A DNA stretch of 57,220 nucleotides, filler included, from Dugesia japonica (Eukaryota), in assembly GCA_001938525.1 (NCBI GenBank). It is 4 parts of 4 records of this genome, joined end to end, with 100 filler letters (N's around TTAATTAATTAA, not from the genome) between each part and the next. Parts side by side here need not be neighbours in the genome. Positions count along the whole stretch, not along the records: positions 1 to 14,462 come from MQRL01564058.1; 3 more parts are not named here. The stretch is one strand, 5' to 3'. Position 1 is the stretch's first letter. The number at the start of each line of letters is the position of its first letter. Below, piece by piece: positions 1-48,999 of the stretch. The notes under the pieces are model-generated. The model did not search any database, was not told where the DNA came from, and was given only the letters and a program-made list of their open reading frames with translations. The position numbers were made by a program, and so were the translations under genes.

Positions 1-613
1 TTTGTAAAAAAGCGCTGTTTGTTTTGAAATACCATATACATGTGTGTATACACATTTTTTGAGATATTCAAAAGAAGAAAATAAGACAAGCACACCTAGC
101 CATAAAATAAAGAAATGGTCAGTTTCGTGGTGCACAAGAAGTCTGCTGACGATGACAGACATAGTAGTTAATACATTGAAGGACTAACTTCCAATGTCAA
201 GGGTAGCTTCTGATAATTTAGTACTTGAAGTACAGTTGACAAGTATGAATAAGAATAATGGCCTTGATTGATATGCAGTTATCGTGTATTATGTTACATA
301 TTACATTATTGACAAATTTGAGTATATCTTTGAAGATGTTTTCCCGTATCTCTTGAAAAGAAGAGATGAATTCAAATTAAATTAGAGTTGTACGCCAATG
401 ACATCTGGTAAAATTCATTTGGATTGTAAGGATTGTCCATAGAGAGCCCAAGGTTAATTTAAAGGCTTAATATCTTCTCTGGGAATCCAGCGAAATTAAA
501 TGAAATATTTCAGCATCTTTAAATGGATTTCATTTCAGAAATTAAAGTTTTCATTTCAAAATTTATTTTCTGAAAATCAACTTTTCCAAAAATCAACTTT
601 TGATCTGTAAATT

Positions 614-743
614 AAACCAATATTTTGAAAAACAAATTTCAATAAGTAAAATTCATTTTTAATTGCAAAGATCAAAACGATTTGATCTTTGTAATTGAAA
701 ATAAATTTTACTTATTGAAATGTGTTTTTCGAAATATTTGTTT
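614..743. repeat. Imperfect palindrome / foldback MITE-like hairpin
   Basis: Arms of about 60 nt (…ttcaataagtaaaatt…ttgcaaagatcaaa / tttgatctttgtaa…aattttacttattgaa…) around a short loop. Confidence 0.75.
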
Positions 744-1153
744 ATCTTTAAATAGGTTCTATTGAATATGGAAAATGTTGTTGATATTCAGTTATATATC
801 AGCCTTTAATTTTACATTGAATGACCAGAAATTAAATAAATAAATATATTTATTCCATAGTGCAAGTTTCCTGAAGATAACTTAAGCAGAATTAAAATAT
901 TTCAGTGGAAAATATCATAAATAGTTTTATATTTCTAAGCACATGGTATACAATACTGATACAAAAGTAAGAAACTACCAAATCAATTATTTTAATGACA
1001 ATGATAATAATAATTATTATTATCGAAAAATATTTCAAATAATTTTCAAAGTATACTGACTAAAATGAATTCTATGGTATTAAATCTGTTGAAAATTTAT
1101 TTATAAATTCTATGAAACACAAATTTAGGACATTAAGTTTAAAGAAATTTCAC

Positions 1154-1225
1154 CTGCATCTTTCCTGCAATATTTCTTGAATCGTATTCGTTTTCTTTTA
1201 TTGTTACACTGTTGACATTTATTTT
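1154..1225 (-). CDS. netrin: Netrin exon 5: start of the NTR/C345C domain (gene incomplete)
   Basis: tttag|..|gtgaaa, 72 nt. Translates (E)NKCQQCNNKRKRIRFKKYCRKDA, matching the netrin KKYCKKDY motif. Later exons were not found in the window. Confidence 0.88.
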
Positions 1226-1228
1226 CTA

Positions 1229-1278
<50 letters not shown>

Positions 1279-1423
1279 GAATAATAAATTATAAATTATA
1301 AAAACGATGGTAAATCATTGATAAAAAATAAATATAAATTTATTAAATACTAAAAATTATTATTATTATTATTNNNNNNNNNNNNNNNNNNNNNNNNNNN
1401 NNNNNNNNNNNNNNNNNNNNNNN

Positions 1424-1491
<68 letters not shown>
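1229..1491. repeat. (TAA)n/(ATT)n microsatellites
   Basis: Direct inspection; partly N. Confidence 0.9.
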
Positions 1492-1764
1492 GTCAAGCGT
1501 TGCTAAATTATCAATTTCGTTTTCCATAAATAGTGAAAATAATTTTTATTAAAATAATTAAATTAATTGGTGAAAATTCATTACTTAAAAAAGTACACCT
1601 TGCAGATTTTCAATTCTCAATAATAAAACAAAAATGTTTCCTAAGGCTAAATTACCTTAATACTGACAAAACATATCGGCTATAACAATCAATATAAACT
1701 TTATTAAAAATATTTAGGAAATGATGATTTCGATGATTTACAAATAGGAGTTTCTATTTAAACT

Positions 1765-2160
1765 CCTAATATCCTCCCTTTTTAAAATCTTTAATCTGCT
1801 CTATATTTCTTATCACTGTTTTTCCGTCATATACTCTTAGTAAATAACTGTTTTCATGTATTTTCTTGATCACAGTATATGATTAACTACTTGTACACTC
1901 ATTCTCTTTGATTTTTCTTCTCCAAGGATGGTTCTTTCATATTCTATTATCTTTACTAATATTTGATTTCTGATCTTCGAAGTTATTGCCCTAAGTTTCT
2001 ATTTCTGAGCTTGCCTGATTTATTTTTGAGGTTCATTAGTAATGTGTTTTGCCAAACTAATTTTTCTACAAAGCTTCTCTCGGATAGGTTCTTCAGCGCA
2101 CAATTTCTTTCTTAATCGTTTTACCTATTCTCTCCGTATGAGTCAATTATTTGATCATTT
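1765..2160 (-). mobile_element. Ty3/gypsy 3' fragment with PPT in a netrin intron
   Basis: Minus strand reads YTVIKKIHENSYLLRVYDGKTVIRNIEQIKDFKKGG followed by AAAAAGGGAGGA. The same tail type ends the elements at 40680 and 42090. Confidence 0.65.
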
Positions 2161-2680
2161 CTGCATCTAAATGATGAAGCGATTATCCTTCACTATAAAC
2201 ATTTATTATTAATAATTATAAAATTGTTTAATAATTATGAATAGAAAAATGAACGTGAACTTACATTACTAATATTGCCGGTTATCATTATAATAAATTA
2301 TCGATTCATAGTTTATGAAGACAGAATTACACTTCGTAAATTATCAACCCGTTTAATAATTTAGAAAGAGATTTCTAACTAATAGGTTATTAATTCTCTT
2401 AATAATTTAGTTGCTATCTTTATTAATTACTTTACTTTTACAAGATACGGTTGTTTAGTTCTATTATGAATTCATTTTAAACTCCTAATAACAACCTCAC
2501 AAATACTAAGCTTAAAGGAACTTAATTATGTTAATATTAATGAGTGTCGTCATGATATAGAGTGGAACCTCTCAAAAGTGACCTTCTTCACGGCTGTGCT
2601 CATATTTTTGATGTTATGTTCAAGTAACTGAAAATAATCACTAAAAACAGAACAAAAACGATTATTAAAATATTTATTTG

Positions 2681-2953
2681 ATTTCATTTAAAATAAAATC
2701 TCCGATCAAAATTTGTTTATTTTGGGTTTTATGATAACAATTCTATATTTCGACTTTGTCTTCGTCAGAAATTAACTTTTTAGTCACTTTAGTCAAAAAG
2801 TCAAAAACTGACGAAGACAAAGTCAAAATATAGAATTGTTATCAAATAACCAAAACAACAAATTTTGATCGAAGCTTTAATTTTAAATGAAATCTGAAAA
2901 ACGATCAATGGTTACGTCCAACAATTAATCTCGCAATAATTGCATTTGTAAAC
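2681..2953. repeat. Inverted pair of Penelope-like terminal repeats nested in the pogo element
   Basis: 2681-2893 is a long palindrome with a hammerhead motif in each arm. The downstream tail (gatcaatggttacgtccaacaatt…ctcgcaataatt) recurs near 45500-45590 and 46780-46890. Confidence 0.65.
2739..2773 (-). ncRNA. Minimal type I hammerhead ribozyme motif (Penelope-type)
   Basis: Minus strand AAUUU-CUGACGA-A-GAC(AAA)GUC-GAAA-UA-UA-GAAUU: core boxes, helix II, palindromic AUAU helix III and helix I pairing. Confidence 0.65.
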
Positions 2954-3563
2954 TATTTATTTGAACAAATATTTAAGAATATTTTTTTCGGATGCCTTAA
3001 TGACTGAATCAGTTTATTTTCTCAAAAATATGTTTCTTAACTTATCAGGTTAGTTCTCAGCAGAGTATTTTTTTTAAAATCAAACGTAATTTTATAAATA
3101 TCATTCGCCTGCATGAGTTGTACCATCATCAGATTTAGAACTATTTAGTTCGTCACAATTGCACATTTGCTGATCATAGATAATAATCATTTTATTCATT
3201 ATTAATAATTTGTTTTTTTAAATCTTCGTCTATATAATTATGGGATCTTGTTTTATGTCCTGGTGAAAGTTTATTATTGTTTCAAAACAATTTGTAATTG
3301 TAGTCACCTTTATTTAATCTATTTATCAATTTCGACCGTGTATTTTTTTATATCACCATTATCAAAATTAAGTAAAAAATTATTAAAAACTTTTTTTTAT
3401 CAGTGGTCACTTCTTTTGCCAAATGTTGACTTTTCAAAACAAAAAATAAAAGGGGTCACTTTAATAAAATCAGTCACTTTTGAGAGGTTCCACTGTAAAT
3501 TATAAATATTTTTATTAAAATAATTTTTAATACTTTTATGGAGAATCATAAAAATTAGTTAAC

Positions 3564-3602
3564 CTGGAGCTTGGGCCATTGGAATTTTGTGAAGGTCATA
3601 AG
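3564..3602 (-). CDS. netrin: Netrin exon 4: 39-nt linker microexon
   Basis: Follows a 45-nt GT..AG intron (3603-3647); tttag|CT TAT GAC CTT CAC AAA ATT CCA ATG GCC CAA GCT CCA G|gt keeps frame and phase (TYDLHKIPMAQAP). Confidence 0.7.
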
Positions 3603-3647
3603 CTAAACATTGCACCATAATATAATACTATAATTATTAATGTTTAC

Positions 3648-3803
3648 TTTCTACACATGGATGGATTGGAGATCTAGTTTGCTGAAAACCTTTTTGACAA
3701 CGATTACATGAAAGTCCGGTTACACCAGGTTTGCACATACATTGACTGTTTCGTTGATCACACTTGTCTGGATATACAGACCCAATTGGATGGCATCGGC
3801 ATT
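3648..3803 (-). CDS. netrin: Netrin exon 3: laminin EGF3
   Basis: tttag|..|gtaaac, 156 nt. Translates (K)CRCHPIGSVYPDKCDQRNSQCMCKPGVTGLSCNRCQKGFQQTRSPIHPCVE. Confidence 0.95.
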
Positions 3804-4436
3804 CTAAAGTGTATATTATATAAATTCAAAAGAATGTCCAAGTATTCGAATTACTTATTACTTATTTTCAGATATTTATTGAATTAGCATTTAAAGAATC
3901 ATATTCTTATATATAATTCTTATATCAATCTTATTTTTGCAACTTTATATCTTTCTGCAACCGAAATAATTTTCTTATATATTCTTGTTTATTTTAGTTT
4001 GTATATATTAATCAATTAATGATGCTATTTATTTAAATTAAAAATCTGCTTTAAACTCAATACTTAGCCAACACATTAGAATTTAAATAGTAAAAAATTT
4101 CGTCAAAATTTCAAAATACGTAAATGTAATGATAAAATTTTTATTTCAAAGTTGTTTAAATTATTGCGATTAATCAAATTAAACATTTATCTACCAAATT
4201 AATATTCTCCACAATAAAAACGTTACACTGACAAGTAAAAGTTGACCCTTTACTTATTTTGAATACACAAATAATATTAATAATTTAAGCATAATGAATA
4301 ATAATTTAATAACAATAAAGGATAATTTAATAATAATAAATAATAATTTAATTTTTAAGAAAATTTACAAATCTATCAATTAGTTACTTTCAATTTATCA
4401 GATAATATTTTAATATTGAATTTGATTTTAACTTAC

Positions 4437-4625
4437 TTAAACACACGTGCTGATGACTAAGAGGTTTGCTCCAGTCTCTGTGGTATCCCTTTTTGCAAAC
4501 ATGACAATAACGACCATCAGTGTTATGCTCACAATCTACACATACACCACCACTTTGTCGGTTAGATAGTATGTATAGTTTTTCATCAAATGAACATTTC
4601 TTTGAATGTAAATTACAATTACATC
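4437..4625 (-). CDS. netrin: Netrin exon 2: laminin EGF2
   Basis: ttcag|..|gtaagt, 189 nt, phase 1-1. Translates (R)CNCNLHSKKCSFDEKLYILSNRQSGGVCVDCEHNTDGRYCHVCKKGYHRDWSKPLSHQHVCL, the characteristic netrin EGF2. Confidence 0.95.
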
Positions 4626-7600
4626 CTGAATAAAATAATTATATAATTATCATAAATTCAGATGGCATTGATTGACGTTTACATAAAGTAATTTCCATGT
4701 AAAAATATCAATAATATATAGTTATAAATATATTCATGTTAATTTTAGAGAAATTCCAATAGTTAAATAATGACAATAATTATTAATGGTCACAAGTTTC
4801 CCCAACTAATTAATTAGTATTCAACACAGTTTTGCTGATGTAATAGAAGAAACACGCTACAGAAGAATCTAATAAAACATTGGCAAATGTGTTAAGAATA
4901 TAATTTCAATGTCTCCACATGTTAGATTATCAGAATATTGATAGATATAGTTTGTTGATAAATCTTTACTACGGATTGAAATTATTATTATTTCTCTTCT
5001 GACACTATTGAAAAAAAATGTTATAGGGCAATTACGTAAAATGCGTCTTTACACACTATTTGTTGAAGTTGAAAATTAATTAATACTCCATAATCAAAGT
5101 TAAATGTCGATTGAATATAATTAATTTTCCTGTTGTTGGATATTGATATTAAATTAAAACAATAGTATATTGTTTTATTATTAAAATTCGAAATATTTAA
5201 TTTATAATTTTGTTTAAGTGTTTTAATCTGAATATTATCAACTTATTTTTAAAATCAATAAAATGAAATCAACAATCAATTATTAAAATTATGAATATAT
5301 AATCTTTAAAAACAAAATAAAACATATTAAGATAGATTCTTCGTTTTTTTTTTAAAGCTAAAATTCTAATATATTTTAAAATCTTGTTTTAGAAAATTCA
5401 TTTTTTTTATTTTATTTAAAAAAAAAAATTAAGAATATTATGAAAAATGATATTTTGAGTTTTCATTCAGTATTTTTAAATTTAATATCATTTTACCATT
5501 TTCTACAAATGATTCACATTATTTCACAGTTTTTATTTTTGCCAAATTAATTTTATAAATTTATTAAAAAGTATCAAATCAAAAATTCTACAAAATTGTA
5601 TGATAATTCAATTTTAATTCACCACATACAAAATTATTTGCCTTTCAATTTTTATAATAAAAAATATTTTATTAATTTGTTATCTTAAATGTTTGGAAAC
5701 TTTCATTTGATTGTGGTGAAATAAAATACCAATGTTTTGGCGAATACGACCAATTGTATAATTGTTCTTTTTGTAGTGAATCAAAATTGAAGTAACAAAT
5801 GTATCTTTAAACTCAGCAAAAGTTAGTTTTGAAAATCCACGTAATTAGTAAATTGGTTATTCAAATTTAATTAAAAATAAAAAAATCAACACATTATAAT
5901 AATTCTACAATCAAAATTATTGGTTAATTTAGTCTAATCTTATAAAGAAACTGATTTCATTCTTTTCAATGGAAGAAATCTTTTAAGTTGATAATATTTC
6001 GTTTTTAAAGATATANNNNNNNNNNNNNNNNNNNNNNNNNNNNNNNNTTCTTTATAATTTTTATGAATAAATTTATAAATTTCGTTAATGCTTAATTTAG
6101 TATAACACAAACAAATTAATCTTTCAAACTTATTACTTTGTATTAACAGAACCTTACATGTCTGCGAACTTTTTACCAATGAAGTGGTTGGAAAATGGTG
6201 TGTCGCGAAAAATTTGTAAAATTAAAATAACTGTTCACAATGCCAAACACATACATGTCATTGATTTTCAATTTTACATAAAGAATAATAATATTTTTTA
6301 TTGTTATTCTTTCTATCATTTCGTATGTTTTCTAACATTTTCTAAAATAATTTAAATAAATGTTTTCGTACTGCTCTAAATTGCAAAGAAGAAATTGTTG
6401 TGTCTCGAAAAAAAGATTTACTTAGGTGTATNNNNNNNNNNNNNNNNNNNNNNNNNNNNNNNNNNNNNNNNNNNNNNNNNNNNNNNNNNNNNNNNNNNNN
6501 NNNNNNNNNNNNNNNNNNNNNNNNNNNNNNNNNNNNNNNNNNNNNNNNNNNNNNNNNNNNNNNNNNNNNNNNNNNNNNNNNNNNNNNNNNNNNNNNNNNN
6601 NAATTATTTATATTATTATTATGTATTATTGATATTGACTGTAATTATATTAAATTTACTTATCAAGGTAAAGTCTTTACGTTGAAAATATCAACATATT
6701 TTAATACATCAATATTTTAATTTAAATGAAAGGAATCTTCAAAACTCATTAATTTTTATTGAAAACTGGAAGCCTTGTTTCCATGTTTTATTTCTTATCT
6801 GTTTGTTAAATAAATTTGAATATGAAGCTTATCTTCAACATTTATGGAAATTTTATTGCAATGTGAACAAAACCAAATTATAGCCAAAACTAATTTTTTA
6901 AAATAATTATTTTATAAAGCTTTGACTTTGGGTACTTTATCTAAGGCAATTATGAATTGATTTTGTTAATTTCGTTATGTAAGATAATGATTTTCTCCTA
7001 TAAATCTGCATTATAAAATACTTCATTTTTAATTTTTATCTTTTTTAAAAATTCTTTCTGATATTGAGTATATTGGAATCATAATTTCAATTTAAACAAA
7101 TGAAATTTACAACTTATCAGGTTGAGTCAAACGTTATTAACGTTTTTCAAATATATTAAATTGGTTTTTCTATTTTATCGATAAAAAAAAATTCACCGAC
7201 ATATATGGTACCATTTTGAAACTACTGAAAAAGTATTGTTATTTTATTTATATATTTTATTTTTGAGAAATATTTTTTGAGAAAGTAGAGTGATAAACGA
7301 AAAAAATTGTAATTCGAGTCATTACTGGAAAAATTGCTCAAGATAGCAGCTGTGATTCGTGAAATTTGTAATATTGAACGCAAANNNNNNNNNNNNNNNN
7401 NNNNNNNNNNNNNNNNNNNNNNNNNNNNNNNNNNNNNNNNNNNNNNNNNNNNNNNNNNNNNNNNNNNNNNNNNNNNNNNNNNNNNNNNNNNNNNNNNNNN
7501 NNNNNNNNNNNNNNNNNNNNNNNNNNNNNNNNNNNNNNNNNNNNNNNNNNNNNNNNNNNNNNNNNNNNNNNNNNNNNNNNNTGTGTGTGTGAATTTGTAG

Positions 7601-8078
7601 GGGTAATAAATTTGTATGTAATAGATTCTATTAAAAAGAATGTGTCCAAAGGACACACCTTAACCGAATAAAGGTTAAGAAAATATAAATTTCCACATAC
7701 TTATTTTTACTTTCTGTTTGTTTATTGAAAACTTATAAAATTAGATTGTTTTTTTTAAAAAAAACATTCATTCTGATCATTGGTTTCTATACTATAATTA
7801 TTAAGTATATATTAAACAATAAAATCTATGAAGAAATTAAAAATCTCTATTTCTTTGTTTTTTTTGAATAAGTTTCAGATTTTTCAAGAATATTGGAAAT
7901 TTGATTAATAAAAATTGATGAAATGAATTTTTTTCAAATTATTTTATGATAAACTTTATAATAAAATACATTATCTAATTATAACTTTACTTCTCAAAAG
8001 ATATTAAACCAATTTAATTAACATCTCTTTAAAGAATGTTAAATATTATTAAGTAGTCTATTAAAACAAATAGCTCAC

Positions 8079-9171
8079 GTTTACATTCTCCGGCTGAATT
8101 AATTGCAGCAATTGTCCAGCGTTTATCCACGAATCCAATTCTACAAACTTCACAATTTTTTCCTGCCGTATTATGCTGACAATCACAATAAAAAGTGTTG
8201 TCAGCAGGACTTTTCAAACAACGACCTGCATGCCCGTAGCATTGACAACGCCCTCCAACTGAGATATCAGCTAATGCAAAATAATCAGAATTTCTTAAAA
8301 CACTTGGAGAATTTTTATTTTTTTGCTTATTTTTCTTTTTATAAGTCGAAGACGAGGAATTGTTTTTTCTATAAATTCTATTAAAATATTGTTTTAATAG
8401 TGGGGGATAAGTAAATCCATCCAAATGAGAATTGATAAAATTAATATCAAATTTACGAAGTGTTATTCGAATATTTGTAGCACTCATCCAAGAATTATTT
8501 TGTCCAGATGTACGAGAGAATGAATTTGGATTATTTGTTGTAAATGCCAACACAAAAGGAGAATTAATTAAATTCGGCTGTTTTGAATCGGGAATATTTG
8601 TGCAACTTAAAGATTGATCAAATTGACTATGGGTGATTTTAATGTCTGAATCGTGATTAATAAAATCTGTCGGCGGTATTCCAAATGAATTTTGACAATC
8701 TTTAGAAAAATAATGCCAAATCACCCATGAGTTTCCATTATCCATACTTTTATAAATTACAATAGCATCTGGATCCAATGATGGAATGAGTACTAAAGAA
8801 ATGTAGTAAATTTCAAACAACTGCCCAAAAGAAAAAGTAATATTAACACTATCTCCATGTTGTACATAATCAGATGCCCAATACGTAATGTTATTATTTA
8901 AGTGTTGGTCTGTTAAGTAGTTTATTGAATGTGTATCATTCATACAACTATGACAATTGTTATTAATACAAATCCTCTGTTTTTTAGTTTGACCACAAGT
9001 GCTTGTAATTTCATCTGGTAGAATATTTTCGATAATATTTGTGAATGGCGGAACACATCGGAATGCTTTTCCTTCACTATAACAAAACGAATTTGATCCA
9101 CCATAAAGCCAATGTTGAGCTTGACTTTGAGTTAATATTGAAAAAATTATAAAAGTATACAACTCATTCAT
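8079..9171 (-). CDS. netrin: Netrin exon 1: signal peptide, laminin N-terminal (VI) domain and EGF1
   Basis: Hydrophobic N-terminus; LamNT motifs (CVPPFTN, YLTD, IYKSMDNGNSW, WMSATNIRITL, ALADISVGGRCQCYGHA, CDCQHNTAGKNCEVC). Donor C|GTGAG at 8079/8078, phase 1; the ORF-track tail after ECK is intronic. Confidence 0.95.
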
Positions 9172-12100
9172 TAAAGATTGGTTTGTTCTAATTTGAATAT
9201 TTTAATAGAACGAATGTAATTAAAAAATAACAAATGCAATTTCTCAATTTTGGCTTGTTATTAAAATTGAAATAGAAACGCAGCTCGTCATTGATTGACC
9301 ATTCTACGAACGAGCTGCCAGATTTGCTTCGGACACACTGACACAAGTCTGAAGGCAAGATATCGCTAATTGAATTTCATTTCTTGAATATTTGCAGTTT
9401 GTTTTCTATAGTGGAAATAATACTGAATAATTTTCTGATTTAATTATCTAAGAATTCTATTGGGTGGGGTCTAGTGTTATTAAATTTAGAATTAATTATA
9501 GATGCATATAAAAATAAACTAAGGTTTTATAAAAGTTAGTAATAAGTTTAGCAAGTAAACTTATTATGAATGAAATATTTTTTTAAAAAAATTTGAAACT
9601 TTTTCTACTTAAAAATGTATCCCTTTAAGAAATGTTTCAATAGTATTTGTGAAAAATTAATGAAGTAATATATCTATTGAAAATTTATTTAACAGTTGTT
9701 TATTTAACATTATAATTAAATTAACATTTTTAATTTATTTATAAAATTAAAAATTTCTGTTTATTATTAATAAATTACACATAATTCTGTTTTTGCAAGA
9801 ATTTGATTTAACATGATTTAATGTACATAATGTATATTTAAAATTGCGTTATAATTAATAAGCGTTAAAACAGAATTAGATGTATTCAATTTAAGTAGAA
9901 AAATTGAAACACAAATATAGAAATATTATAAATAATAATTATTATAGTATATAATTAAAATATATTTAGTATTGAGTTGATNNNNNNNNNNNNNNNNNNN
10001 NNNNNNNNNNNNNNNNNNNNNNNNNNNNNNNNNNNNNNNNNNNNNNNNNNNNNNNNNNNNNNNNNNNNNNNNNNNNNNNNNNNNNNNNNNNNNNNNNNNN
10101 NNNNNNNNNNNNNNNNNNNNNNNNNNNNNNNNNNNNNNNNNNNNNNNNNNNNNNNNNNNNNNNNTCCCCCTTTTTATCATTCGAATTCCCCGAATCTTGT
10201 TGGTTTTGCGTCTTCTCTCTTAGAATTATTTTTTCCTTGTATGTTTGTAATTAGTTATTCCAGTTTGATTATTGAACTCTTTTGATTTGCTTGTTATTAT
10301 TGTGTTGAGATGTCTTTGGGATTTCGCAAAGGCAAATCAACGATTTTAACGTGAGCTCTAATAGTTTACTTTTAAGAAACGAAATCCTATAAATTTTTCA
10401 CTTATAAATATCGTTATCAATGTTTTCTATATCTTAATATGTTTAATATATATAATGATATATTTGTTAATAAACTATATAGTCACCTTAAGTATCAAAA
10501 ATTTAAAGTTTACTTTTAAAAAATTTTATTGTCAACTATATTACAATTTTAAAACTTCACATTGATAAATTAAAGAGAAATGACAAGATTCAATTATAAT
10601 CAAACAATTAATTACTAAAGTTGTAAGCAATAATAACAACAGGAACTAATCGCTAATTAAAAGTAATGACATAGAAGATAATAAAGTGCAATTTCAACAA
10701 GGAGTAAAATAATAACAAGAAAACTTCAAGGCTAAGAATGTTGCCGACGATAATACTGAAATAATCTAGTTTAAAATTCATTGGTTCCAAGTTTAAATGA
10801 AGGTTATATTCAGATTGATCATACTAATAACCATCCTAATAATAATAATAATACTAACATACATAATAAAATTCAAATTAACAATACTAACAATAATAAT
10901 ACTAATAATAATATCAATAATAATCATAATAATAATAATGTTGTTGTAAAACACCTGACTGTAGAAGAAAATCTAGGCCCAAGGCCGAAATCAGAACCTA
11001 ATAAAGAAGGGGGGGACAAGAAGGAGGCAAATAAGAATTTATCATCGGTTTGGCAAAGAAATTACAAATATAATTAATTAAAAATCGGATTAAGAAGGGA
11101 AACAAGAAGAAGGATGTCAGATGGCTGAAATATTATTCTAAAAGTCAGGTTNAATAATTAAAAGAAAATAAAATATTGTTAAAAAACCAGAAAATTATCA
11201 TCACAACGAATATTTAATTATCAAGAAATAATTAATTAATTGCAACGAAAAAAGAAAATAAATTAAGCCAAAATCGTTTTTCTGAAGATAACCCCGCTCA
11301 GGAAAATCATGGAGACTTGGGGCAAGAAAATCTGAGAAGGAAATGATGCAGGGCAATAGGTTTTCATAACAAGAAAAGTTTATCATTACCAGGAGGGTCT
11401 TGAGAAGGCTTTTAAATTTCCACCAATTGTAATCCATAAAACAAAAATAAAACAAAGAGCAGAAAATCACATGGTGACTTAAAAATAGTCACCAATGGAA
11501 GTTCTAAAAACCTCTGAAAAAATCTGAAAACTGGCACCATCACGAATCAGAAACAAGAGATTCAAATTAAAAATAGAAAGCCAATGGCGATGGCGCCGAG
11601 ATGCATCGGAAAATCATATAAAACAATTTTAGACGAAAATAAAATATAAAATTTTTATTAAATAAATGTCATTAATTGCGTAAACTAGCACATCAACTTT
11701 CGTGGAGTAAATTATAGTGGAAAAAAAATTGGATTATCTTGAAAAGGAAACGAAAACAACCAACATTTTCAGTGGTCTTATTATTAGTTAAAACCTACTA
11801 AATTAACGATCAAATTTTAGACGAGTAAAGCAGTAATTAATAAACAAGCAGGAGAAATTTGTCAATTGAACTCAGCTATTATCATTATTCACGTTGCAAG
11901 AAGAAAATTTCAGTTACGAGTAAGCATGCGTTATTTTATATTTATTACTGTAGTAAATGTGTTTAATTTTTTACCNATTAATAAAANTATATCTATAATT
12001 GCTTATTTGTTTAATTCTACATATATTGTGATAAATAGATATTTACAGTTGACAATAACCGGATTGGCAATCGCCCAGCGTACAGTAAATTGTAACCACA

Positions 12101-13562
12101 TTGATTTTATATTGTCGGTAATGTCATCTAATAAATTTGAACAGTTAGAGTCTGATGCTTAGAAACATCTAACAGACCATCTGAGTACTATTCCAATTTT
12201 TAATTACATACAAAATTTCCTCTCCAGATGAAACACCATTGCGATCTCAGTACTTGATCGTACTCACTATTCGCGAACGAACCTAAAATCACTTAAATTG
12301 ATGGCATTACCACTCTACAATGTGAAAGACACACTCCCCATACATCGGGCTGAAAAAAGTACATGTCTATATACGACAGGAGGCATTCGTGTAATTACAA
12401 AGTTTTGCTTAACTGACATCATAACACACAGGCACGAATTCTTCCCAACGATTATGACTAACACATCGTTAAGGCACGCAATGATAACATCGGACCATAT
12501 CTCTACTTTATTAATAAATTGATAATCCATTCATGATTATATGAATCCGTAGTAGTCAGACCACGTTAGTATCTCGATAACTACCGCTATTAGCATGATT
12601 TTTCTTGATATCCATTATTATTGTAATGCTCGGTTGTTGCACATGGATAGTGGGAGTGTGTCGCTTAATGTTATTGGCATGGATATTATCATGAGGCTTT
12701 AATTAAAATTAATCTTATGATAAAAGTTGAAGGTTTATTATCTTTATTATTATAATTGAAGATACTATCGAGGATACAATATTATCAATGATTTCATCAA
12801 CTATTCCTCACACAAGTTTTAATAGGATATATTGTGGCATACTCAATGTGTTATTTAAGAAAATTGCTGTCTGATTAGACGCTCAGAGTGTTATGAAAGC
12901 ACCAATGAGGAACACTATAGTCACTATCCCTAATTTTTTCACCTAAGGACATCTGTCATCTACTAACATTAGTACTAATAGTTTTATGGTTATTATTATT
13001 AACACTGATTATCATTATTGTTATTAATATTATTACTAATAACATTGTTGTGGTAATTGTTATGATTAGTATTATAATTAATATTATTAACATGATTATT
13101 TTAACAAGCGTCATTGTCATATTTGTTCTGGTATATTACTACCAATTACTGTTTTGTCGATAACTAAGAATTAACTTTATATATTCAACATGTTACATTA
13201 TTACCGCTAACATTATCAGTAACTATATGATTTTTCATGATTTCTTTAAAATTACGACTACCGATTTTAATAGTACTTACATAGTATTGGTTAAATATTG
13301 CTGTTATGTTCACGATTATTCCCATTGGTTTTCCACAATATTATTGCCATCTGGAATTTGGTTATAATAAATAATAGTACTAATATTAATAAAATCATTT
13401 GTCAATGCAAGCACCGATTAATGTACTTTAGCGTCCTTTTTACCGGTACTGAAGTCGGGGAACTGACTCCATGTCTAGCATAGGTCCTTTTTATGTATGC
13501 TTCCATTTAGTAAAGAATCCAGTACGTTATAAAATAGTGATAAACTTTAATTCAGATTATTC

Positions 13563-13748
13563 ATGTCCGGCTAACTGTCAAAAACAATAAAGCTGATTTG
13601 GCAGGAGAGGCGTAAGGTCCGAAGAAAACAGCTATTAGCTTACATCCTCTCCCAAGGCGTAACGGAACATCCTGACGAAACTGACTTGCAATGTTTCGTT
13701 GAGATGTTCCCCTTGGAGTATCCAGTTGATATAGATGACGATAAATAA
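13563..13748 (+). pseudogene. Small ORF with one premature stop (MSG*LSKTIKLIWQERRKVRRKQLLAYILSQGVTEHPDETDLQCFVEMFPLEYPVDIDDDK)
   Basis: GC-richer than background, protein-like composition, preceded by TTCAG + 7 nt. Confidence 0.4.
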
Positions 13749-13857
13749 CTTCTAATANGTTTTCACTGTACATTGAATTAAATATACATTGCTTGACAAT
13801 TTTGGTTTATGTAATTAATAACTTATTGTCGTTATTTTCTTTTATTTCAGTATACAA

Positions 13858-14052
13858 ATGGAATATAAGTGGGAGATTTTTTTGGATAGGCACACTGGTA
13901 GGTTGATCTTCAAAAGATATAGGAACCCCCATGACCGAGATGCCGGGGTGTTCGCGGATTATGCTAACCTGTCCAAGGAAGATGCCGATAATGAACGAGA
14001 ATGGGACGCGGCCAAGCGGCGTGCATATTACGAGTGGAATGGACCCAATTGA
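13858..14052 (+). CDS. Unknown 64-aa protein, probably retroelement-associated
   Basis: Intact ATG..TGA, GC-rich for this window, preceded by a polypyrimidine tract, TTCAG and 7 nt. Confidence 0.45.
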   Translation: MEYKWEIFLDRHTGRLIFKRYRNPHDRDAGVFADYANLSKEDADNEREWDAAKRRAYYEWNGPN

Positions 14053-14462
14053 ACGCGAGACCGCCCCTCAGTAGTGCCTATATCGTCGGTTCATCTACTA
14101 CCTTTATCCGGGTTAAGGGAGTTCATAACGAATATTCTACGGGAGTTGCAAAATAATGCAGATGGTGGCGCCTCCAAAAATGCCCCTTCGGATTGACAAT
14201 TAATTATCCTACTAAATCTTATCATTATTAGTTGTGTTTATGATATTAATAATAAAGCTTAAGGTGTTTAATTAAGTAGTCGTTCACTCGTGTTGTTTCC
14301 GGCATTACGAGCGTAGTTTGTTATTTATTAAATACTATATTAGTGTCAAACTAGGAACTATAAACTACCTTATTTATTTCTATTTTTATAGTGCATTCCT
14401 CTTTGAATCGTTTAGTAGCACCCACTAAAAAAGATACGCGAGTCGAGCGATGATCAAGCGAC

Positions 14463-29918: not shown

Positions 29919-31364
29919 CTAAAATTTAGATTTCATTTTTATTTTTTTCTGTGTAGCTCTTTCAAGCTCTTTGAGTTCCAGCATGTCTTCTTCACGCCCG
30001 ATTCTCGAACTACGGATTTCCTCTTTACAAATATCATCGAAACGCGACACCATATTCGTGCAATCATCGTATTTGCTGACTTTAGCGTACTTTTTCGGAT
30101 CGAAATTGAGAGATTTATAGATTTCATTCTTTATTTTGTCATCAACAACGAATTCTGTGTCATCGATAAAATCATCCAATTCAGAATCGTACTCGTCGTA
30201 ATCACTGTCGGATTTGTAACTGTCACCCATGGGTAATCTGTTGCCGGATTGTGCGAGAATTCCACGTGCGGTATTGCTATTATTTTGTGCTGCAATTCCT
30301 CGAGCTGGAGGGACAGATGAAAATCTTTTCTCATTTTGATAATTCCTATTTGGATTACCCGCGTTTTGTGCAGCTATCCCCCTAGCTGGTGCTCCAGAAG
30401 AATGAGCATTTCGTTGGGGCATTTTATTGATTGAATTAATTCCATTTTGTGCGGTAATACCTCTATTATTACCTGATGAAGATGTGGGATTTAATCGACT
30501 TTTATGTTGAGAAATACTCTTAGAATTATTATTATTATTATTCTGAGACTGATTTCTTATTGCACAATTCGATTTATTTTCATTCTGTTTATTAGACACA
30601 GATGTATTTTTCGACGAAATTTTTGAACTCGATTCTTGCAAAACTTTGTTTACTGATTTAGATGAATTTTGTATGGAAGAACAACTTTTCGATTTATTAT
30701 TTATTTTATCTTTACTGTTTGAGTGATTTGAAATTGAACTGGTATTTCTAGAGGAAGACTGTGCTAATATTCCAGATTGTGAAGGCTTTAAAATCTGAGA
30801 ATTTGTACTAATATTCTTGGCAGGCGGATAATTTGACGAGTTCTGAGTATTATTTTGCTTACTATTTATTTTAGCTGCAGTTATAGGGTTATGATTTTGT
30901 TTTGCTAAAGAATTAATTGGCATAAGAGATTTTGGCTTAGATTTTTCCGACTGAACTTTTGATTCATTTAATTTAATTTTTTTATTTGAAATTCCTGATT
31001 GATTTGTGTCAATATTGTTAGATAACTTTCGTTTTATCGGCATTGGTGGGAGCGAAGATTCGTTTGATTTGATTTTTTTAGTTGGCGGTATTTCAGAAAC
31101 GTTATTATTATGTTTAGCTCGATTTTCTGCTTCTTTCATAATCTCTGCAAAACTTTTAGATTCTACTCTGATTTTTTTAACCGGTGGAGTTTTTTCTTTA
31201 ACTTTTTCCGTAAATACAACCGGTGGAGGAGCAGCTTTGATCTTTTTTTGTTCTACTTCTCTAAACTTTCTTCGTTTTTGTTCTTCCATGTCACGCAAAA
31301 TTTTTTCTTTCTGTTTCTGAAGATCCGACAAAACATCACCTTTTCCTGAACCTGGAACATTACG
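29919..31364 (-). CDS. SPT2: SPT2 homolog (histone H3/H4 chaperone), exon 2
   Basis: Long open frame. The C-terminal EYDSELDDFIDD...FDPKKY...M.SRFDDICKEEIRSSRIGREED is the SPT2 domain; charged N-terminus and S/N/K-rich disordered middle. Acceptor catag| at 31365. Confidence 0.9.
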   Translation of the reverse strand, partial: RNVPGSGKGDVLSDLQKQKEKILRDMEEQKRRKFREVEQKKIKAAPPPVVFTEKVKEKTPPVKKIRVESKSFAEIMKEAENRAKHNNNVSEIPPTKKIKSNESSLPPMPIKRKLSNNIDTNQSGISNKKIKLNESKVQSEKSKPKSLMPINSLAKQNHNPITAAKINSKQNNTQNSSNYPPAKNISTNSQILKPSQSGILAQSSSRNTSSISNHSNSKDKINNKSKSCSSIQNSSKSVNKVLQESSSKISSKNTSVSNKQNENKSNCAIRNQSQNNNNNNSKSISQHKSRLNPTSSSGNNRGITAQNGINSINKMPQRNAHSSGAPARGIAAQNAGNPNRNYQNEKRFSSVPPARGIAAQNNSNTARGILAQSGNRLPMGDSYKSDSDYDEYDSELDDFIDDTEFVVDDKIKNEIYKSLNFDPKKYAKVSKYDDCTNMVSRFDDICKEEIRSSRIGREEDMLELKELERATQKKIKMKSKF

Positions 31365-34019: not shown

Positions 34020-36540
34020 AAACAAAAACCTGAGATAATGGTAAATATTAATTTTCCTTCCATAGATAACTTTCATCGGAGAGAATCCTGTGGCCCTTGA
34101 TATCGTGCAATTAAATGAAAACTCAACTTTTGGAAGGATTTTATCCTAACACTTCTCCTCTCCTCCAAGTTTCAAGGATGTTACTATCATATCTGTGACA
34201 GTTCTAATTATGCGTTCTGCGAAACCATTTGACTAAAAAGTCATGGGTGTAAATATCCACGAAATATGAAATCTTGAAGCAAACTCTTGTAAAACCTTTC
34301 CATCAAACACTCTACCTCGATCAGAAACAATGTGTTTAGGTTTTCCATATTTGTAAATCCAGTTATTTAACAATGCACTTTTGATCGTGTTTTCGTTTTG
34401 ATTTGTGGTTGAATAAAGACTAACTAACTTGCTCAACTGATCAATTATGACTATCATGTATTTTTTGTTGGATTTACTGTTATTCATATATGCCTATATA
34501 TCACGATTTGTTCCATCGGTTTAGCTGCGTATCTAGGTATAAATGTTTTCTTAACTTTATCACTACTACCCTTCCTGTGCATACAAAAATGACATTCTCT
34601 GATGGCATTCTGAATATCCGTAATCATATTCGGCCAGAAAAAATAATCAGATACATATTTTTTGTTTTCTTTATTCCAACATTTCATAAATCTCTATGAA
34701 TTTTGTTCCCAAAATTAGTTACGCATCTTTTTGGAACCACTATCTTTTTCTCATCATCTGACGCAATTGACAGCATATCGTCTTCAATTAAAAACCTATC
34801 TAAATATTTAAAATACTGGGAGGTTTTTACTGTTTCTGATAATTTAACAGATTTGTACATCAAATGAATTTCGATTTTCTTAAATAACTCGTCTTCTTTA
34901 AATTCCTTTATGTAATTGTACGAATCACTTCTGAAAACATTCATAACATTTAAAAATTTTACCTTAGACGATTTAGACTTGNTATTTTCATGTTCAGTTT
35001 GGCATTGTGAACAATAACTAGACATCAATCTTTACATACCATCAGCATTGGAATGATATTTCTCTTTTCTATACTTCAATACGAAATCATATTTTGATAA
35101 CTCGTTTATCCAAGTCTAAAACTGCGGCGTAATCGGTTTCTTTATAAACTTCAAAGCTTTGTAATCTGTTCTTGCGACAAAACTTTTTCCATTATAGATC
35201 ATGCTGAAAATGTCGAATAAATTCATAAAGAGCCAATAACCCCTTCCTGGTCGCACAATATCTTTTTTCATGTGCGTTCAACAACTTTGACGACTTCTAT
35301 ACCGTTTTTGGATTGGCTCAGTACAGCACAATTTCCCGAAAAACTGGCATTAGTATCTAGAATAAATTGACCTTCTGAATTAGGATACCCCATTACTGGA
35401 TAATTACAAAGAGCTTCCTTGATTTTCCTGAAACTCGTTGTCCAGATTATCTCGTGCTTTTGACCTTCGGTATTAGCATATAAAGGTGTAGCAAGTTGCG
35501 AAAAATTCTTTATAAATTTCCTGTAATAGTTCGCCATTCCAAGAAAAAATTGCAATTGTTTAGTACATTTTGCAATTCCAGTATTAAAATTGATACAATT
35601 CACAATTCCAGATACAGTTTACATTTGGCTGGATTAACTTTAAGACCTGATGCTTGAATTCTTTGAAATACTTCTGATAGAATGCAATCCGATTTTTCTC
35701 AAAGATTAAAATATCATTGATATAAACTACAACGCCTTTAAATAGAATACCTGACAAAATTGTATGGATTAATTTTTGAAACGTAGCCGGAGCAGNNNNN
35801 NNNNNNNNNNNNNNNNNNNNNNNNNNNNNNNNNNNNNNNNNNNNNNNNNNNNNNNNNNNNNNNNNNNNNNNNNNNNNNNNNNNNNNNNNNNNNNNNNNNN
35901 NNNNNNNNNNNNNNNNNNNNNNNNNNNTACACTCACTAAGATTATCGAATAAAATTTGAGAATCTGGCATAGGCAATGAAAATTTATCAGTTGCATCATT
36001 TATTAATCTGAAATCCTGACACATATGAATAGCTCCATTCTTTTTGTTAACAATCACCATAGGTGAATTCCACGGGCTACTACATTCTTTTATAATGCCG
36101 CTTTTGATAAGTGTTTCAATCAACTCATCAATCTTGCTTTCTAGATGCCTCGGTTGTCGTCTTGACTGTTGTAAGACATGATTCCCCGTTGTTTGGATTG
36201 GATGTTTAACTAGGTTTGTTTTACCCAGGTCAAACGTATGCATTATAAATACCGAGGCGAAACGCGTTAACAATTTTTTCAAGGTATCATCTCTTGGTTT
36301 GAAAACATCCATAGTGACTTTTAAACGATGCTCATCAGAAGCATCACACATTACATTATCTGACTCGATTAATCCAATCATCTTTAACTGATTATTAAAA
36401 ACGTTGAACATGTCTATTCCACCAATAAACTCTAGGCATATACTCTGTACTACCACCAAGTTGACAGTTTTGTTCATATTATGGTATTAAAGTTTCATTT
36501 TTCCGACGCCTAAAAATTTAACAGCTTCCTTCGAAAATGC
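34020..36540 (-). mobile_element. Ty3/gypsy retrotransposon A, degenerate pol (end of PR, RT, RNase H, IN)
   Basis: SSPWNSPMVIVNKKNG..MCQDFRLIN, APATFQ, VVVYINDILIF, FLGMANYYRKFI, FILDTNAS, FFWPNM...CHFC, IVSDRGRVF, SNGFAER; RT-RH-IN order. Confidence 0.92.
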
Positions 36541-36639
36541 TCCACTAAATTTCTTCTATGAATTTTCCAATGGAAACGAACCACATCTTTTCCAAGNATT
36601 CATATCCATTACTGAAATNAATGCACCTGTATTTCATAA

Positions 36640-39600
36640 TAGTAGGGGATAGTAGCGATAAAATCTTTGCAAACAAACTAGATAAAACAGAGATGACAAA
36701 AGAATTAATATTCAATAGTTGCCCCGATAAAAGAATGCAAATAAAGATTAAAGGAGGCAAACTAGCTAACTCGGAAGAGATACTTGAAACAATAAAAGTA
36801 AATGATGAACTAAAAGAGGACCTGAAAGAAACAGATAATATAAATACGGTGGAGAGTTACAGCAATGCAGAAAAATGAGGCATGACAAAAGAACGCTTCT
36901 CAAGAGTTAACGGAACTCAAAGGTAAGATAAAAAAAGAAATTACATGTTGGTCATGTCAGAAGATAGGTCATATCAGCAAAAATTGTCCGGAAAAGAAAA
37001 CAATGTGTTACGCATGCGGATCAGAGAATCATATAAGAAGGAATTGTGACAAAATTAGATGTGCAAGATGTGGAAAAAATGGACATCGTACAGAACAATG
37101 TTATACTNNNNNNNNNNNNNNNNNNNNNNNNNNNNNNNNNNNNNNNNNNNNNNNNNNNNAATAAAGAAACGAAGCAGCACAATACAACCGAATAGAGGAA
37201 ACAAACAGAAGATATGACGATAATAACAGATTCCCAACGCAAATAGGGAGGACATGAGCCAATAACGGATTCAGGAAAAGAGACGGCAATAGATATGTAA
37301 ACACAATTGTAGAGAAGGATAAGGAGGACATAAATAAAGACGATAATATTTATTATTACGACGAGGAGACAAAGAAGTATAGAGAAGAGACCCCAAACAG
37401 ACAAGCTCCATCAAAAGTCGAGGTGATTGGAGCAATGAACTGAAAAAGATCGTGATATACATATGTATAGTAAAAGTAGTTTAATTAATAGTATAAAAGA
37501 TGAAACTAAAGAGGAAAGAGTCGACAGAAAGGTTTATGCGTTTTTAAAGAAAGATTTCAAAGATATGTATAATGCCGATTTCAATATAATGAAAGAAACG
37601 AGAAATGGTGATAACAAAATAATGGTATTAAAAGAGAATAAACAAGTAAACATAAATTATGATAGAATGCAAGGTAGGCCCAGTGTAGAAATTAGAATTC
37701 AAGGAAAGTATATGGACTGCCTTTTTGATACAGGTGCAAAGATAAACGTGATGCGCCTCAATATTTTTAGAAGTCTGCCAAATGTGGAGCTGATAGGAAC
37801 TGGTGACGTGTTAAAATNTGCAAATAATAGCAGAATGAACATTGCGGGTAAGACATATGTAGAAGTGGAGATCGGAAACAATAATAAAACAGTAAAATTC
37901 ACCGTAGTGGAAGAAATAAGTCCGAATCTAGTCGGAGGAACAGACATGCAAGCCAGTTTGGATACCGATTAACGAAAGAAACAAATGATTATGAGGATGA
38001 ACAGTGGATCTGCAACATAGATGCAAGGTTTGGCCGTAAAATTNAGGATGCTGAAAGAGAACAGAGAGATTTGAAAATTTTGATGACAAAACGAGACAAA
38101 AAACTGGAAAAGGTAATAGTAAAACATCGAGGAGTATTCATGACAGAAAACTGGGATGTCGGATGCACAACGTTGGCGAAACACAAGATAGTGACAAAGG
38201 GTAACCCAATAAATACGAAGCCTTGGAGACAACCCATGAATCTCGAAGAAAAAATNNNNNNNNNNNNNNNNNNNNNNNNNNNNNNNNNNNNNNNNNNNNN
38301 NNNNNAATTTAGCGGACGCTAATATTATAAGAAAATGTAATTCGAAGTGGAACACACCACTGATATGCGTCTGGAAGAAAGAAAGAAATGATGTGAGACT
38401 TTTCAGAAAACTAAATACAGTTACGGAACGACAGGCTTTCCCTATGCCAAACGTAGAAGAAATGTTAGACAATTTGTATGGAGCCAAATACTTCAGTACC
38501 ATAGACTTGGGAAACGCGTATCACCAGGTACCATTAGGAAAAGAGTCAGAAGAGAAAANNNNNNNNNNNNNNNNNNNNNNNNNNNNNNNNNNNNNNNNNN
38601 NNNNNNNNNNNNNNNNNNNNNNNNNNNNNNNNNNNNNNNNNNNNNNNNNNNNNNNNNNNNNNNNNNNNNNNNNNNNNNNNNNNNNNNNNNNNNNNNNNNN
38701 NNNNNNNNNNNNNNNNNNNNNNNNACATTATATAACTCTGGGTCAGGTATTAGAGCGGATCCAAACGGTAGGGTTGCGAATGAATCCAGAAAATGCCACT
38801 TATTACGCAAAGAAGTGAAATTTCTTGGCCACATAATAAATAAAAAAGGAATTCGAACAGATCCAATGAAAATCGAAGCTATCAAAAATTTTGAGAAATC
38901 ACAATGAGTAAAGAACCTGAGAAGCTTCCTCGGAATATGTAATTATTACAGAAGATTCATCAAGAATTATTCAAAGAAATCAAGAGCCCTAGAAGAATTA
39001 TGTGGAAGTAACAGCATGAAGCTAATATGGTCAGATGGATGTGAGAAAGCTTTCGTAGAAATGAAAAAAGCACTGATAGAAGCACCTATTTTAGGATTTC
39101 CTGATAAAAAGAAGACATTTATTTTAGATACTGACGCTTGCTTCGACGCNNNNNNNNNNNNNNNNNNNNNNNNNNNNNNNNNNNNNNNNNNNNNNNNNNN
39201 NNNNNNNNNNNNNNNNNNNNNNNNNNNNNNNNAGAATGGTTACTGTATCACACGGAAGGAATTACTAGCAATCTACTACTTCTGCAACCACTTTAAGCAT
39301 TATTTATATGGAAGAAAATTCATAACGAGAACAGATCACAAAGCCATCGTATTCATGAAAAAACGAACAAACCGATAACACGTCAATTCCAGGCATGGAT
39401 GAATTACCTTAGCAGCTTAGACATGGAACTAATATATAGACAAGGCGAAAAACACACAAANNNNNNNNNNNNNNNNNNNNNNNNNNNNNNNNNNNNNNNN
39501 NNNNNNNNNNNNNNNNNNNAAGATCCAAAGATGGGGAAGATGAAAACAAGACAGATAAATCAGATGATAAAGATAGAGAGATGTAAATGGCAAGAAGAAA

Positions 39601-40684
39601 TAGAGAAAATCAAACTAATCAAACGAGATATTCGAGAAGGAAAGAACTCAAAGTATAGAGTAAAAAGTAAAATAGTGAAAACAAGTGATGGGAAAATTTG
39701 GATTCCAAAAGAGAAAATATTATCAATAATCAAAGAGATACATACATGGTTAATACATGCAGGGACAGAGAAAATGATCAGCTATATAATCAGCAACTAC
39801 AACATGGAATAACTGAAGAAAACAATCACAGAAGTGATAAGACAGTGTAAAGCGTGCCAAAAGAACAAAGTTAATACGGTGACAACAAAAGAGACAACAT
39901 TGAAATTAAGCGCAAATTGTCCATTTGAAAAGATATATGTGGACACATGTGTGCTTTTTTGAGAAACTGTGAACAGCCAAATATAAATATAAATATATAT
40001 AAAAAANNNATATAAATATATATAAAAAAATAATAGACCAATACAGTCGATACCTAAGCCTAACGGCAATCAGCAAGCAGGATGACGAGACAATTAAAAA
40101 AGTGATAATTGAAAAATGGAACCTGAAATTTGGAGCACCAAGAGAAGTTCACTTAGACAGCGGTAAGACATTTGAATCGAAAAACTTCAAGAATCTGAAG
40201 GAATCGATGAATATAGAAATACACTTTTCAAGTCTGTACGATCGCAATACAAACATAATTATAGAGAGATAATTCCGCATAATTAGAGACTGTATTAACG
40301 CAGTTGCAGATGAAGATAGAAGAAACGATTGGAGTAACAGGATACTGGAAATTGAATACATGATGAATGCGACAAGGCAAAAGACATTGGGGATATCTCC
40401 AGCAGAATTAGTATTTGATATGAGAATTCACAGAGAATTATGGTTTGACAGCCAAAAAGATGACAAAGAGTTAATGTAAGAAACACCTACAAAAAGATCA
40501 TTTCAAGTGGGAGACGAAGTATTAATTAAACTAGAAACTAGAACAAAAGACAATGAAAGATACGTTGATCCATACAAGATCACAGATAAGGTACATGTGA
40601 GAAGATATCGTATACGAAATACAAAGTGAAAAGTGATAGAAAGGAACGTAGAAAAGCTTCAAAAATTCTTTTAATCGAGGGGGA
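36640..40684 (+). mobile_element. Ty3/gypsy retrotransposon B (gag with three CCHC knuckles, PR, RT, RH, IN, PPT), degenerate
   Basis: CWSCQKIGHISKNC, CYACGSENHIRRNC, CARCGKNGHRTEQC; LFDTGA; YFSTIDLGNAYHQV; FILDTDA; RTDHKA; H..LIH...CKAC; VHLDSGKTF; PPT GAGGGGGA at 40677-40684. Confidence 0.95.
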
Positions 40685-40976
40685 TGTAAGTGTTAAAAAT
40701 TGAAAATCGCAATTTAAAGTTTGAAGAAAATGTTTCAAAAGATTTCAAGAAATTTTAAAAATATTTAAGGATTAAAAATTGAAAATCGCAATTTAAATTT
40801 TGAAGAAAATGTTATGAAAGATTTCAAGAATTTTTTAAAATATTTAAAATGTTTGTTTTAATATTCAGCTTTTAAAAACATAGTTTTTTGAAGATTTGAA
40901 GATTTGGAATTTTGTGTTATAAATAAAAATTTATTGAATTTAATGGACTTTTCAGAAAGTTTATCAGTAACTAACA
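40685..40976 (+). repeat. LTR (TG...CA, 292 nt) between elements B and C, with an internal ~78-nt tandem duplication
   Basis: Starts TGT right after the PPT, ends AACA, and is followed immediately by PBS-like TGGCGACC; contains AATAAA. Confidence 0.8.
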
Positions 40977-48985: not shown

Positions 48986-48999
48986 ATTTACCTACTTGT

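Follow-up and report, generated by a model that had tools for sequence, protein, structure and literature searches.

Analysis of 57,220 nucleotides (nt) of Dugesia japonica DNA (assembly GCA_001938525.1; four parts joined end to end with filler, hereafter the window) revealed that the long terminal repeat (LTR) of a Burro-type giant gypsy element houses an array of protein-coding genes of its own. The array forms the end of the first part (positions 1-14462, contig C564058 with identical numbering). Sequence comparison makes it nearly certain that the region from 10939 onward is an LTR and that the four open reading frames (ORFs) found in its relatives, ORF1 to ORF4, are coding. It is also probable that these genes are expressed by cis-splicing of one common leader, transcribed from a predicted promoter inside the LTR, onto an acceptor in front of each of them. 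An earlier note, made from the window alone, had described two tandem small frames, ORF1 and ORF2 here, as an accessory cassette of a large gypsy-like element, and had named further genomic copies, their ratio of nonsynonymous to synonymous substitution rates (dN/dS) and linkage to gypsy pol as checks. The cassette stood, with thousands of copies, dN/dS far below 1, and gag, env and pol on the same contigs; it comprises four genes instead of two, both copies in the window are broken, and the frames lie in the LTR itself, not in the 3′ region where the note had placed them.

The repeat is dispersed, and homology among its copies begins at window position 10939, where the sequence of the relatives is TGTTGGGG. 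The window LTR (10939-14462, plus strand, as are all cassette features below) retains its 5′ end and has lost its 3′ part at the contig end; its upstream flank is (AAT)n and not the internal purine tract, and it is either a solo or a 5′ LTR. Whole copies span TGTTGGGG...CCCCAACA, measure 4.4-5.0 kb and have TGTTG...CAACA ends; the copy L020, of 3.9 kb, carries an internal deletion. The 4-bp target duplications matched in four of five whole copies examined (CAAC, TTTT, CTAG and ATAA), while the fifth showed one mismatch (ATTT/ATTG). Such ends, combined with short target duplications, are those of a gypsy-type LTR retrotransposon.

Most LTR ends sit in unrelated flanks, but one 3′ flank was common to 21 of the 100 ends listed with a search pattern that enriches for G/C flanks, and this junction had 155 exact matches. 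Within it, a run of 18 nt pairs with the 3′ terminus of tRNA-Pro-like genomic sequences with CCA added, which identifies a primer-binding site starting 7 nt past the LTR end. A search for TGG within 0-4 nt of either LTR end had detected no common flank, the true site starting farther out, and ARAGORN called no whole tRNA in six tRNA-Pro-like loci. On the other side of the element, an identical purine-rich tract stands before the LTR at all seven junctions found among 26 loci, although it is not as pure as the classic polypurine type; no purine tract was visible among 100 listed of 2,890 5′ ends, where the search pattern required a purine at position -17 and the real tract has C. A protein search of the genome gave, as rough first-look counts, 10,021 candidates for ORF1 and 10,270 for ORF2, compared with 1,624 for gag and 817 for an ORF of the 3′ internal region. 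Because the LTR genes far outnumber the internal ones, solo LTRs are suggested to dominate.

The isolation of most copies in unrelated flanks, together with imperfect inverted repeats formed by the two ends, could also be read as the signature of a non-autonomous Ginger-type cut-and-paste element with TGT ends and 4-bp target duplications. We give this explanation practically no chance. It is at odds with the tRNA primer site, the purine tract and the presence of gag, env and pol on the same contigs. The copies also lack the CCGG/CCGT duplications and the inverted repeats of 40-270 bp that characterise Ginger1 in the available text of PMC2836005. Contigs holding the LTR, primer site and gag together refute the Ginger-type reading.

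Several further observations concern the LTR ends. LTRs paired head-to-tail and tail-to-tail were seen at L084, L087, L102, L025 and L024. Many LTR ends adjoin (AAT)n or (ATT)n tracts. These arrangements may reflect a bias towards AT-rich microsatellites as targets or towards the element's own ends. At L367 (C378538), the primer site at an LTR end continues into an almost complete tRNA-like sequence, which looks like a DNA copy of the primer tRNA. The tRNA-Pro-like sequences L364 and L365 (C27951 and C327330) are without a 5′ end and share a long upstream region, rich in AT and with AG as its last bases; ARAGORN made no tRNA call at either, and they could be relics, or tRNA genes that are split or interrupted by an intron.

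Contigs that combine the cassette with internal genes identify the host element. On the single contig of L328, ORF1-4, the primer site and gag are all present. In element copies a gag-like frame begins ~1.7 kb past the primer site, and a relative at L327 shows a weak Retrotrans_gag match plus zinc knuckles. The order on C619908 is gag, env, protease (PR), reverse transcriptase (RT), RNase H (RH) and integrase (IN), followed by ORF1 and ORF2, so that the PR-RT-RH-IN series is present. C609115 carries zinc knuckles, a SUMO-like domain, Bcl-2, a Monjiviricetes fusion protein, PR, RH, IN and BIR, and terminates at an LTR start. The fusion protein (PF24664, E 1.6e-53 and 4e-25) and BIR (PF00653, E 8.8e-14) were matched clearly, while the SUMO-like (PF11976, E 0.0025) and Bcl-2 (PF00452, E 0.0046) matches are weak, both falling below the cut-offs. 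MATH/TRAF, dUTPase and ankyrin motifs, which also belong to Burro and GYPSM1, gave no match at E 0.01 among 27 decayed frames. In the published layout, as given in the available text of PMC6431247, the planarian elements Burro and GYPSM1 encode gag with CCHC knuckles, SUMO-like PF11976, Bcl-2, a mononegavirus-type fusion protein before the protease, pol and BIR, exceed 30 kb in total length and are present in thousands of copies. The present element has the same domain order and a similar abundance, with the fusion protein between gag and protease, the SUMO-like and Bcl-2 domains upstream and a BIR. Judged by this layout, the host of the cassette is a Burro-type giant gypsy element. Its internal part covers at least ~22 kb on C609115, to which two LTRs of 4.4-5 kb are added; no contig spans the whole element, and its total length is probably ~30 kb or more. 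The gypsy pol fragments of the window itself lie on its other parts and provide no evidence of linkage.

The internal region also has accessory frames at its 3′ end, on the minus strand of L318 (C619908, 1069-2400) and L320 (C609115, 700-3000). They encode a BIR protein that ends in a RING-like part, and a coiled-coil protein whose tail is rich in proline (the source of the 817 candidates); each is preceded by an acceptor, and by eye the frames start 3 nt past it. At L018 and L316, frames recognised by eye as resembling Polinton-type DNA polymerase B stand beside or within element copies.

Within the LTR, long copies keep the order ORF1, ORF2, ORF3, ORF4, with spacers of ~100-190 nt between a stop codon and the next acceptor. 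In the window, ORF1 (13563-13748, ~60 amino acids (aa)) follows a predicted TTCAG acceptor at 13551-13555 and runs for 61 codons from the ATG at 13563 to TAA at 13746-13748, interrupted at codon 4 by an in-frame TAA (13572-13574), just as first described; its product is basic in the N-terminal half and has an invariant acidic core, HPDExDLxCFxEMFPL. ORF2 (13858-14196) follows a second predicted TTCAG acceptor, at 13846-13850. Its first 64 codons, from the ATG at 13858 to TGA at 14050-14052, had been taken for an intact peptide, but they belong to a truncated copy of a gene that encodes 130-143 aa in stop-free copies: the TGA is premature, and a 72-bp deletion (relative to L006) follows 14054, and the same frame runs on to 14196. 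Both frames are richer in GC (0.43 and 0.48) than the spacer between them (0.23) and the whole stretch (0.26), as had been noticed. AATAAA at 14251-14256, likewise confirmed, is a candidate polyadenylation signal past ORF2, whereas the GT-rich tract reported beyond the frames is weak. At 14389-14462, a TAG acceptor (14389-14391) and the exon start TG CAT TCC mark ORF3, whose frame is lost after ~12 codons before the contig end cuts it; in other copies, ORF3 encodes a coiled coil with a DKxTQT end and is followed by ORF4 and the LTR end. The window copy is thus a dead relic. The region 11920-13550 showed no codon periodicity among close copies. At L287, a further ORF2 paralogue, diverged and preceded by an acceptor of its own, occupies positions 3303-3714, so that the cassette number varies among subfamilies.

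Comparison of copies showed that all four frames have been under purifying selection. For pairs of copies 10-20% and 20-30% apart, respectively, pairwise dN/dS was 0.20 and 0.08 for ORF1, 0.32 and 0.10 for ORF2, 0.25 and 0.11 for ORF3, and 0.22 and 0.07 for ORF4, far from 1 throughout (0.07-0.32), while shifted and antisense control frames gave 0.81-2.49. These values come from the copies in register (60 of 69, 63 of 79, 50 of 73 and 57 of 75 for ORF1 to ORF4), out-of-register copies having been dropped. Among those kept, 16, 31, 27 and 22 contain internal stops, as decaying insertions of an element whose active lineages were selected would be expected to do.

The proteins themselves have almost no recognisable relatives. 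Pfam returned nothing above the cut-off for ORF1-4, and weak coiled-coil matches alone, as in ORF4. A protein database search at E 0.001 for sequences of similar length, covering ORF2 and the alignments of ORF3 and ORF1 (ORF4 was not searched), yielded no homologue; the ORF2 profile, compared with 1.84 billion representatives, found one unnamed match of 94 aa, P0008 (E 3e-21), on a 512-bp contig. The solved-structure search gave nothing meaningful, and the ORF3 profile did not match that of ORF4. The structure model of ORF2 is not confidently folded (pLDDT 41), and that of ORF3 is a single helix of 87 residues (pLDDT 84).

The C-terminus of ORF3 provides a possible functional clue. In the 49 of 73 copies where this region is readable, the protein ends in DKGTQT (17 copies), DKSTQT (6 copies) or near variants, and most of the 49 have an end of the DKx(T/V/I/S)Q type, i.e. 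a TQT anchor of the LC8 type in a flexible region. Clients of LC8 (DYNLL), as portrayed in the available text of PMC6607443, resemble the modelled ORF3 in the C-terminal KxTQT and in the flexible tail next to a coiled coil. The model of the ORF3 tail in complex with the host LC8 (L370) scored 0.84 against 0.31 for the best control, with 96% of contacts common between runs and a partner pLDDT of at least 75; of microbial pairs, 51 of 78 solved ones attain the mark used for such models, as do 2 of 108 mismatched ones, and for eukaryotic pairs the corresponding figures are 39 of 65 and 2 of 126. ORF3 is therefore predicted, on the strength of modelling, to bind this host hub protein. By analogy with complex retroviruses, the ORF1-4 proteins are likely regulatory or trafficking accessories.

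These data raise the question of how four genes could be expressed from one LTR. A putative promoter lies at 11581-11623, with CCAAT at 11581-11585 and a TATA box at 11617-11623, and the CCAAT-TATAAAA pair recurs in several subfamilies at ~+555 to +716 from the LTR start. It would be followed by a predicted non-coding leader exon (11645-11919) with a terminal A, whose start near 11645 is placed from the TATA box alone. The leader contains a conserved motif, CGTTGCA(A)GAA (11892-11902 in the window), found ~280-330 nt past CCAAT/TATA, and after a variable spacer comes the predicted shared donor, A|GTAAGC (11920-11925), which is conserved in copies. The base before the donor is A in 19 of 20 copies compared and, counted by eye, in 99 of 100 genome matches (the first listed of 531), whereas A precedes 90 of 333 other GTAAGT sites; neither the base at -2 nor the length of the spacer is constant. 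ATG is depleted in the 250 nt before the donor (22 observed versus 96 expected in 23 rows, two of which are non-LTR sites contributing 11 of the 22), while CAT is not.

The acceptors complete this picture. Within 25 nt upstream of the ATG, an acceptor is present in 42 of 54 ORF1 and 48 of 57 ORF2 copies, compared with 215 of 1468 background ATGs. The spacing of exactly 7 nt to which the earlier note had drawn attention is subfamily-specific: measured from the nearest YAG with a pyrimidine tract, the offset ranges from 0 to 21 nt and equals 7 in 6 of 54 ORF1 and 14 of 57 ORF2 copies. Nor does that spacing stand out as a signal, since TTCAG-N7-ATG occurs five times in the window against ~2.3 expected (129 TTCAG, ATG frequency 0.018). 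ORF3 and ORF4 open one base into a codon, right past a conserved YAG. Of the copies in register (68 of 73 for ORF3 and 67 of 75 for ORF4), 64 and 60, respectively, have an exon that starts with TG, and no ATG lies close to the start of ORF4. From this pattern, an upstream exon with A as its last base is predicted. A conserved upstream donor and an acceptor before each gene, the two marks of a common leader, were both found. Past the stop codons, AATAAA outnumbers TTTATT within 110 nt for ORF1 (25 versus 10 of 35 copies), the sole clear enrichment.

Taken together, these features make it quite probable that a common leader is spliced in cis from the predicted LTR promoter onto the ORF1-4 acceptors. 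Transcription would start near 11645, and the non-coding leader would be joined from the donor at 11920 to the acceptor of each gene in turn. ORF1 and ORF2 would use their own ATG, and the last A of the leader would complete the A|TG start of ORF3 and ORF4, for which N-termini of MHSSL and MPRI, respectively, are predicted. Each spliced exon would end at its own poly(A) site, while unspliced RNA would read through to become the genome of the element. A solo LTR would therefore hold the whole four-gene unit. Of the shared-donor splicing proposed in the earlier note, the donor at 11920 was found, conserved in DNA, and junction reads were not, the splicing being deduced from the sites.

Two other potential splice sites deserve mention. 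At 12213-12230, an extra acceptor (G at 12227) is immediately followed by ATG, and its AG is kept in 10 of 12 close copies; downstream of it there is no codon periodicity, and the frames are broken in all eight rows translated, so this may possibly be a decayed further cassette. At L286, L288 and L293, 300-800 nt past the primer site, another acceptor-ATG and a strong donor, CTG|GTAAGT, are conserved and flank GGAAGA-rich tandem repeats; they probably allow another round of splicing, for gag or for accessory genes of the internal region. As a source of the ORF3 and ORF4 starts, this donor was rejected by eye for its wrong phase from the nearest ATG.

The spacers of ~100-190 nt resemble those of nematode operons, and one precursor could be resolved by spliced-leader trans-splicing into four mRNAs with a host leader, the second route offered in the earlier note. 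Planarians use trans-splicing, to judge from the reference list of PMC12582326, and ORF1 and ORF2, with their own ATG, would fit. Reported flatworm leaders end in AUG, according to the available text of PMC12582326, and an AUG joined to a TG exon would shift ORF3 and ORF4 out of the selected frame; ORF4 would have neither an in-frame leader AUG nor an ATG of its own. Moreover, an upstream cis donor fixed as A|GT exists. Trans-splicing is thus disfavoured, and we consider it improbable. The TG exon starts could alternatively mean that the four frames are joined to one another as parts of one or two multi-exon genes in which G|TG is read as valine, and some subfamilies do have GT sites of compatible phase inside ORF1 and ORF2. 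These sites are not retained across subfamilies, every frame stops at a conserved position, and a valine codon would not fix G at its third position (80 of 288 valine codons, or 28%, end in G in the cassette genes), which leaves the multi-exon explanation with little probability.

Several observations count against cis-splicing of a common leader or against what we read from it. No qualifying acceptor was found in 12 of 54 ORF1 and 9 of 57 ORF2 copies. The AATAAA signal is hardly more frequent than TTTATT past ORF2 (4 versus 3 of 9), ORF3 (8 versus 5 of 14) and ORF4 (9 versus 7 of 13). Copies are mutually related, and the counts are not of independent events. On C619908, no LTR start separates ORF1 from the internal region that precedes it, an unexplained deletion or variant layout. 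The score of the LC8 model may reflect recall of solved LC8-TQT complexes and shows likeness only; by the available text of PMC6607443, many TQT peptides do not bind LC8, and the anchor alone is no guarantee of binding. Finally, on neither the window nor L287 is a predicted junction crossed by an RNA read. Three RNA runs gave 67, 15 and 4 reads on the window, from diverged relatives and mostly on the AAT-rich low-complexity tract and the ORF1 core, and 311, 236 and 74 reads on L287, located on ORF1 and ORF3, at the LTR end and primer site, and in the internal leader; depth on L287 was ~0 at the leader donor, and on both sequences it was near zero at the acceptors. There is no sign of abundant spliced RNA in these reads, which, at 6-26% of each run, amount to no real test (joints from runs X1 and X2, which look like DNA, were set aside).

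The same reads bear on where the genomic RNA begins. Their depth on L287 peaks at the LTR 3′ end and primer site, as would be expected if the TATA box and leader were an internal promoter in a very long U3, serving the accessory genes only, with genomic RNA starting near the LTR 3′ end. Foamy viruses have an internal promoter, and an R plus U5 of ~4 kb, which would follow if genomic RNA also starts near 11645, would be very unusual. By eye, no TATA box could be seen in the last 250 bp of L287, L288 and L029, while L020 has TATAAATA there; the LTR 3′ end is the most conserved part and by itself attracts reads from diverged copies. We regard an internal promoter as rather unlikely but worth keeping in mind; it would change the anatomy of the LTR and leave the splicing scheme as it is.

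The common-leader reading has a wider form, to which we assign slightly less than an even chance. The LTR itself would be a four-gene, virus-style unit, with one promoter and an A-ending leader serving four alternative terminal exons, two of them without a start codon until spliced. The thousands of solo LTRs would be dispersed accessory modules able to act in trans, an LC8-binding protein among their products, and the first-strand intermediate would be ~4 kb.

Outside the cassette, the window contains both host genes and decayed elements. The first large exon of a netrin/laminin-type host gene lies at 8029-9201 on the minus strand (Laminin_N E 1.4e-34, laminin EGF); this gene and the LTR are in head-to-head orientation, and ~1.7 kb separates the exon from the LTR 5′ end upstream of it. 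At 29919-31364, also on the minus strand, a 481-aa frame with an SPT2 chromatin domain (E 2.7e-14) represents an ordinary host gene. Decayed gypsy pol and gag fragments and an RT-like frame occupy 34684-42098, 48789-50042 and 56347-57220, in other parts of the window; by eye, their peptides are unlike the Burro-type frames.

LTRs are normally short control regions. In mouse mammary tumour virus (MMTV), the sag gene sits in U3, and it resembles the present cassette in being a protein gene within an LTR; sag is one gene upstream of the main promoter, whereas here four genes lie downstream of the predicted promoter in the same LTR. The env gene of Drosophila gypsy and of springer-subclade errantiviruses has a start codon assembled by splicing, AT|G, in the available text of PMC2585583 and PMC12992720. 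There, AT comes from the donor and G from env, in one gene of the internal region; here, A|TG is predicted for two of four in-LTR genes. The MDG1-group frames sORF1 and sORF2 are small accessory ORFs of low dN/dS, separated by an alternative poly(A) site (bioRxiv 10.1101/2025.03.14.642691); compared by description in the available part of that preprint, their RNAs are unspliced and they lie upstream of gag, unlike the in-LTR cassette. The account of Burro in the available text of PMC6431247 mentions accessory ORFs but no in-LTR gene array, common leader or split start, the primary description (Grohme et al. 2018) being outside this comparison. No account of this cassette was found in searches of the open-access full-text literature, and the four-gene cassette within the LTR appears new among Burro-type elements.

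An LTR of 4.4-5 kb with four selected orphan proteins and a predicted promoter, leader and splice-built starts would bring regulation in the style of complex retroviruses into a gypsy lineage, and it offers exact, testable junctions for a main repeat family of planarian-type genomes. Knockdown of the nuclear PIWI is reported to increase the RNA of LTR elements in a planarian (PMC8532177). As solo LTRs would keep the whole unit, its proteins could still be produced long after the loss of gag and pol, and this bears on what PIWI silencing in planarian tissues must suppress.

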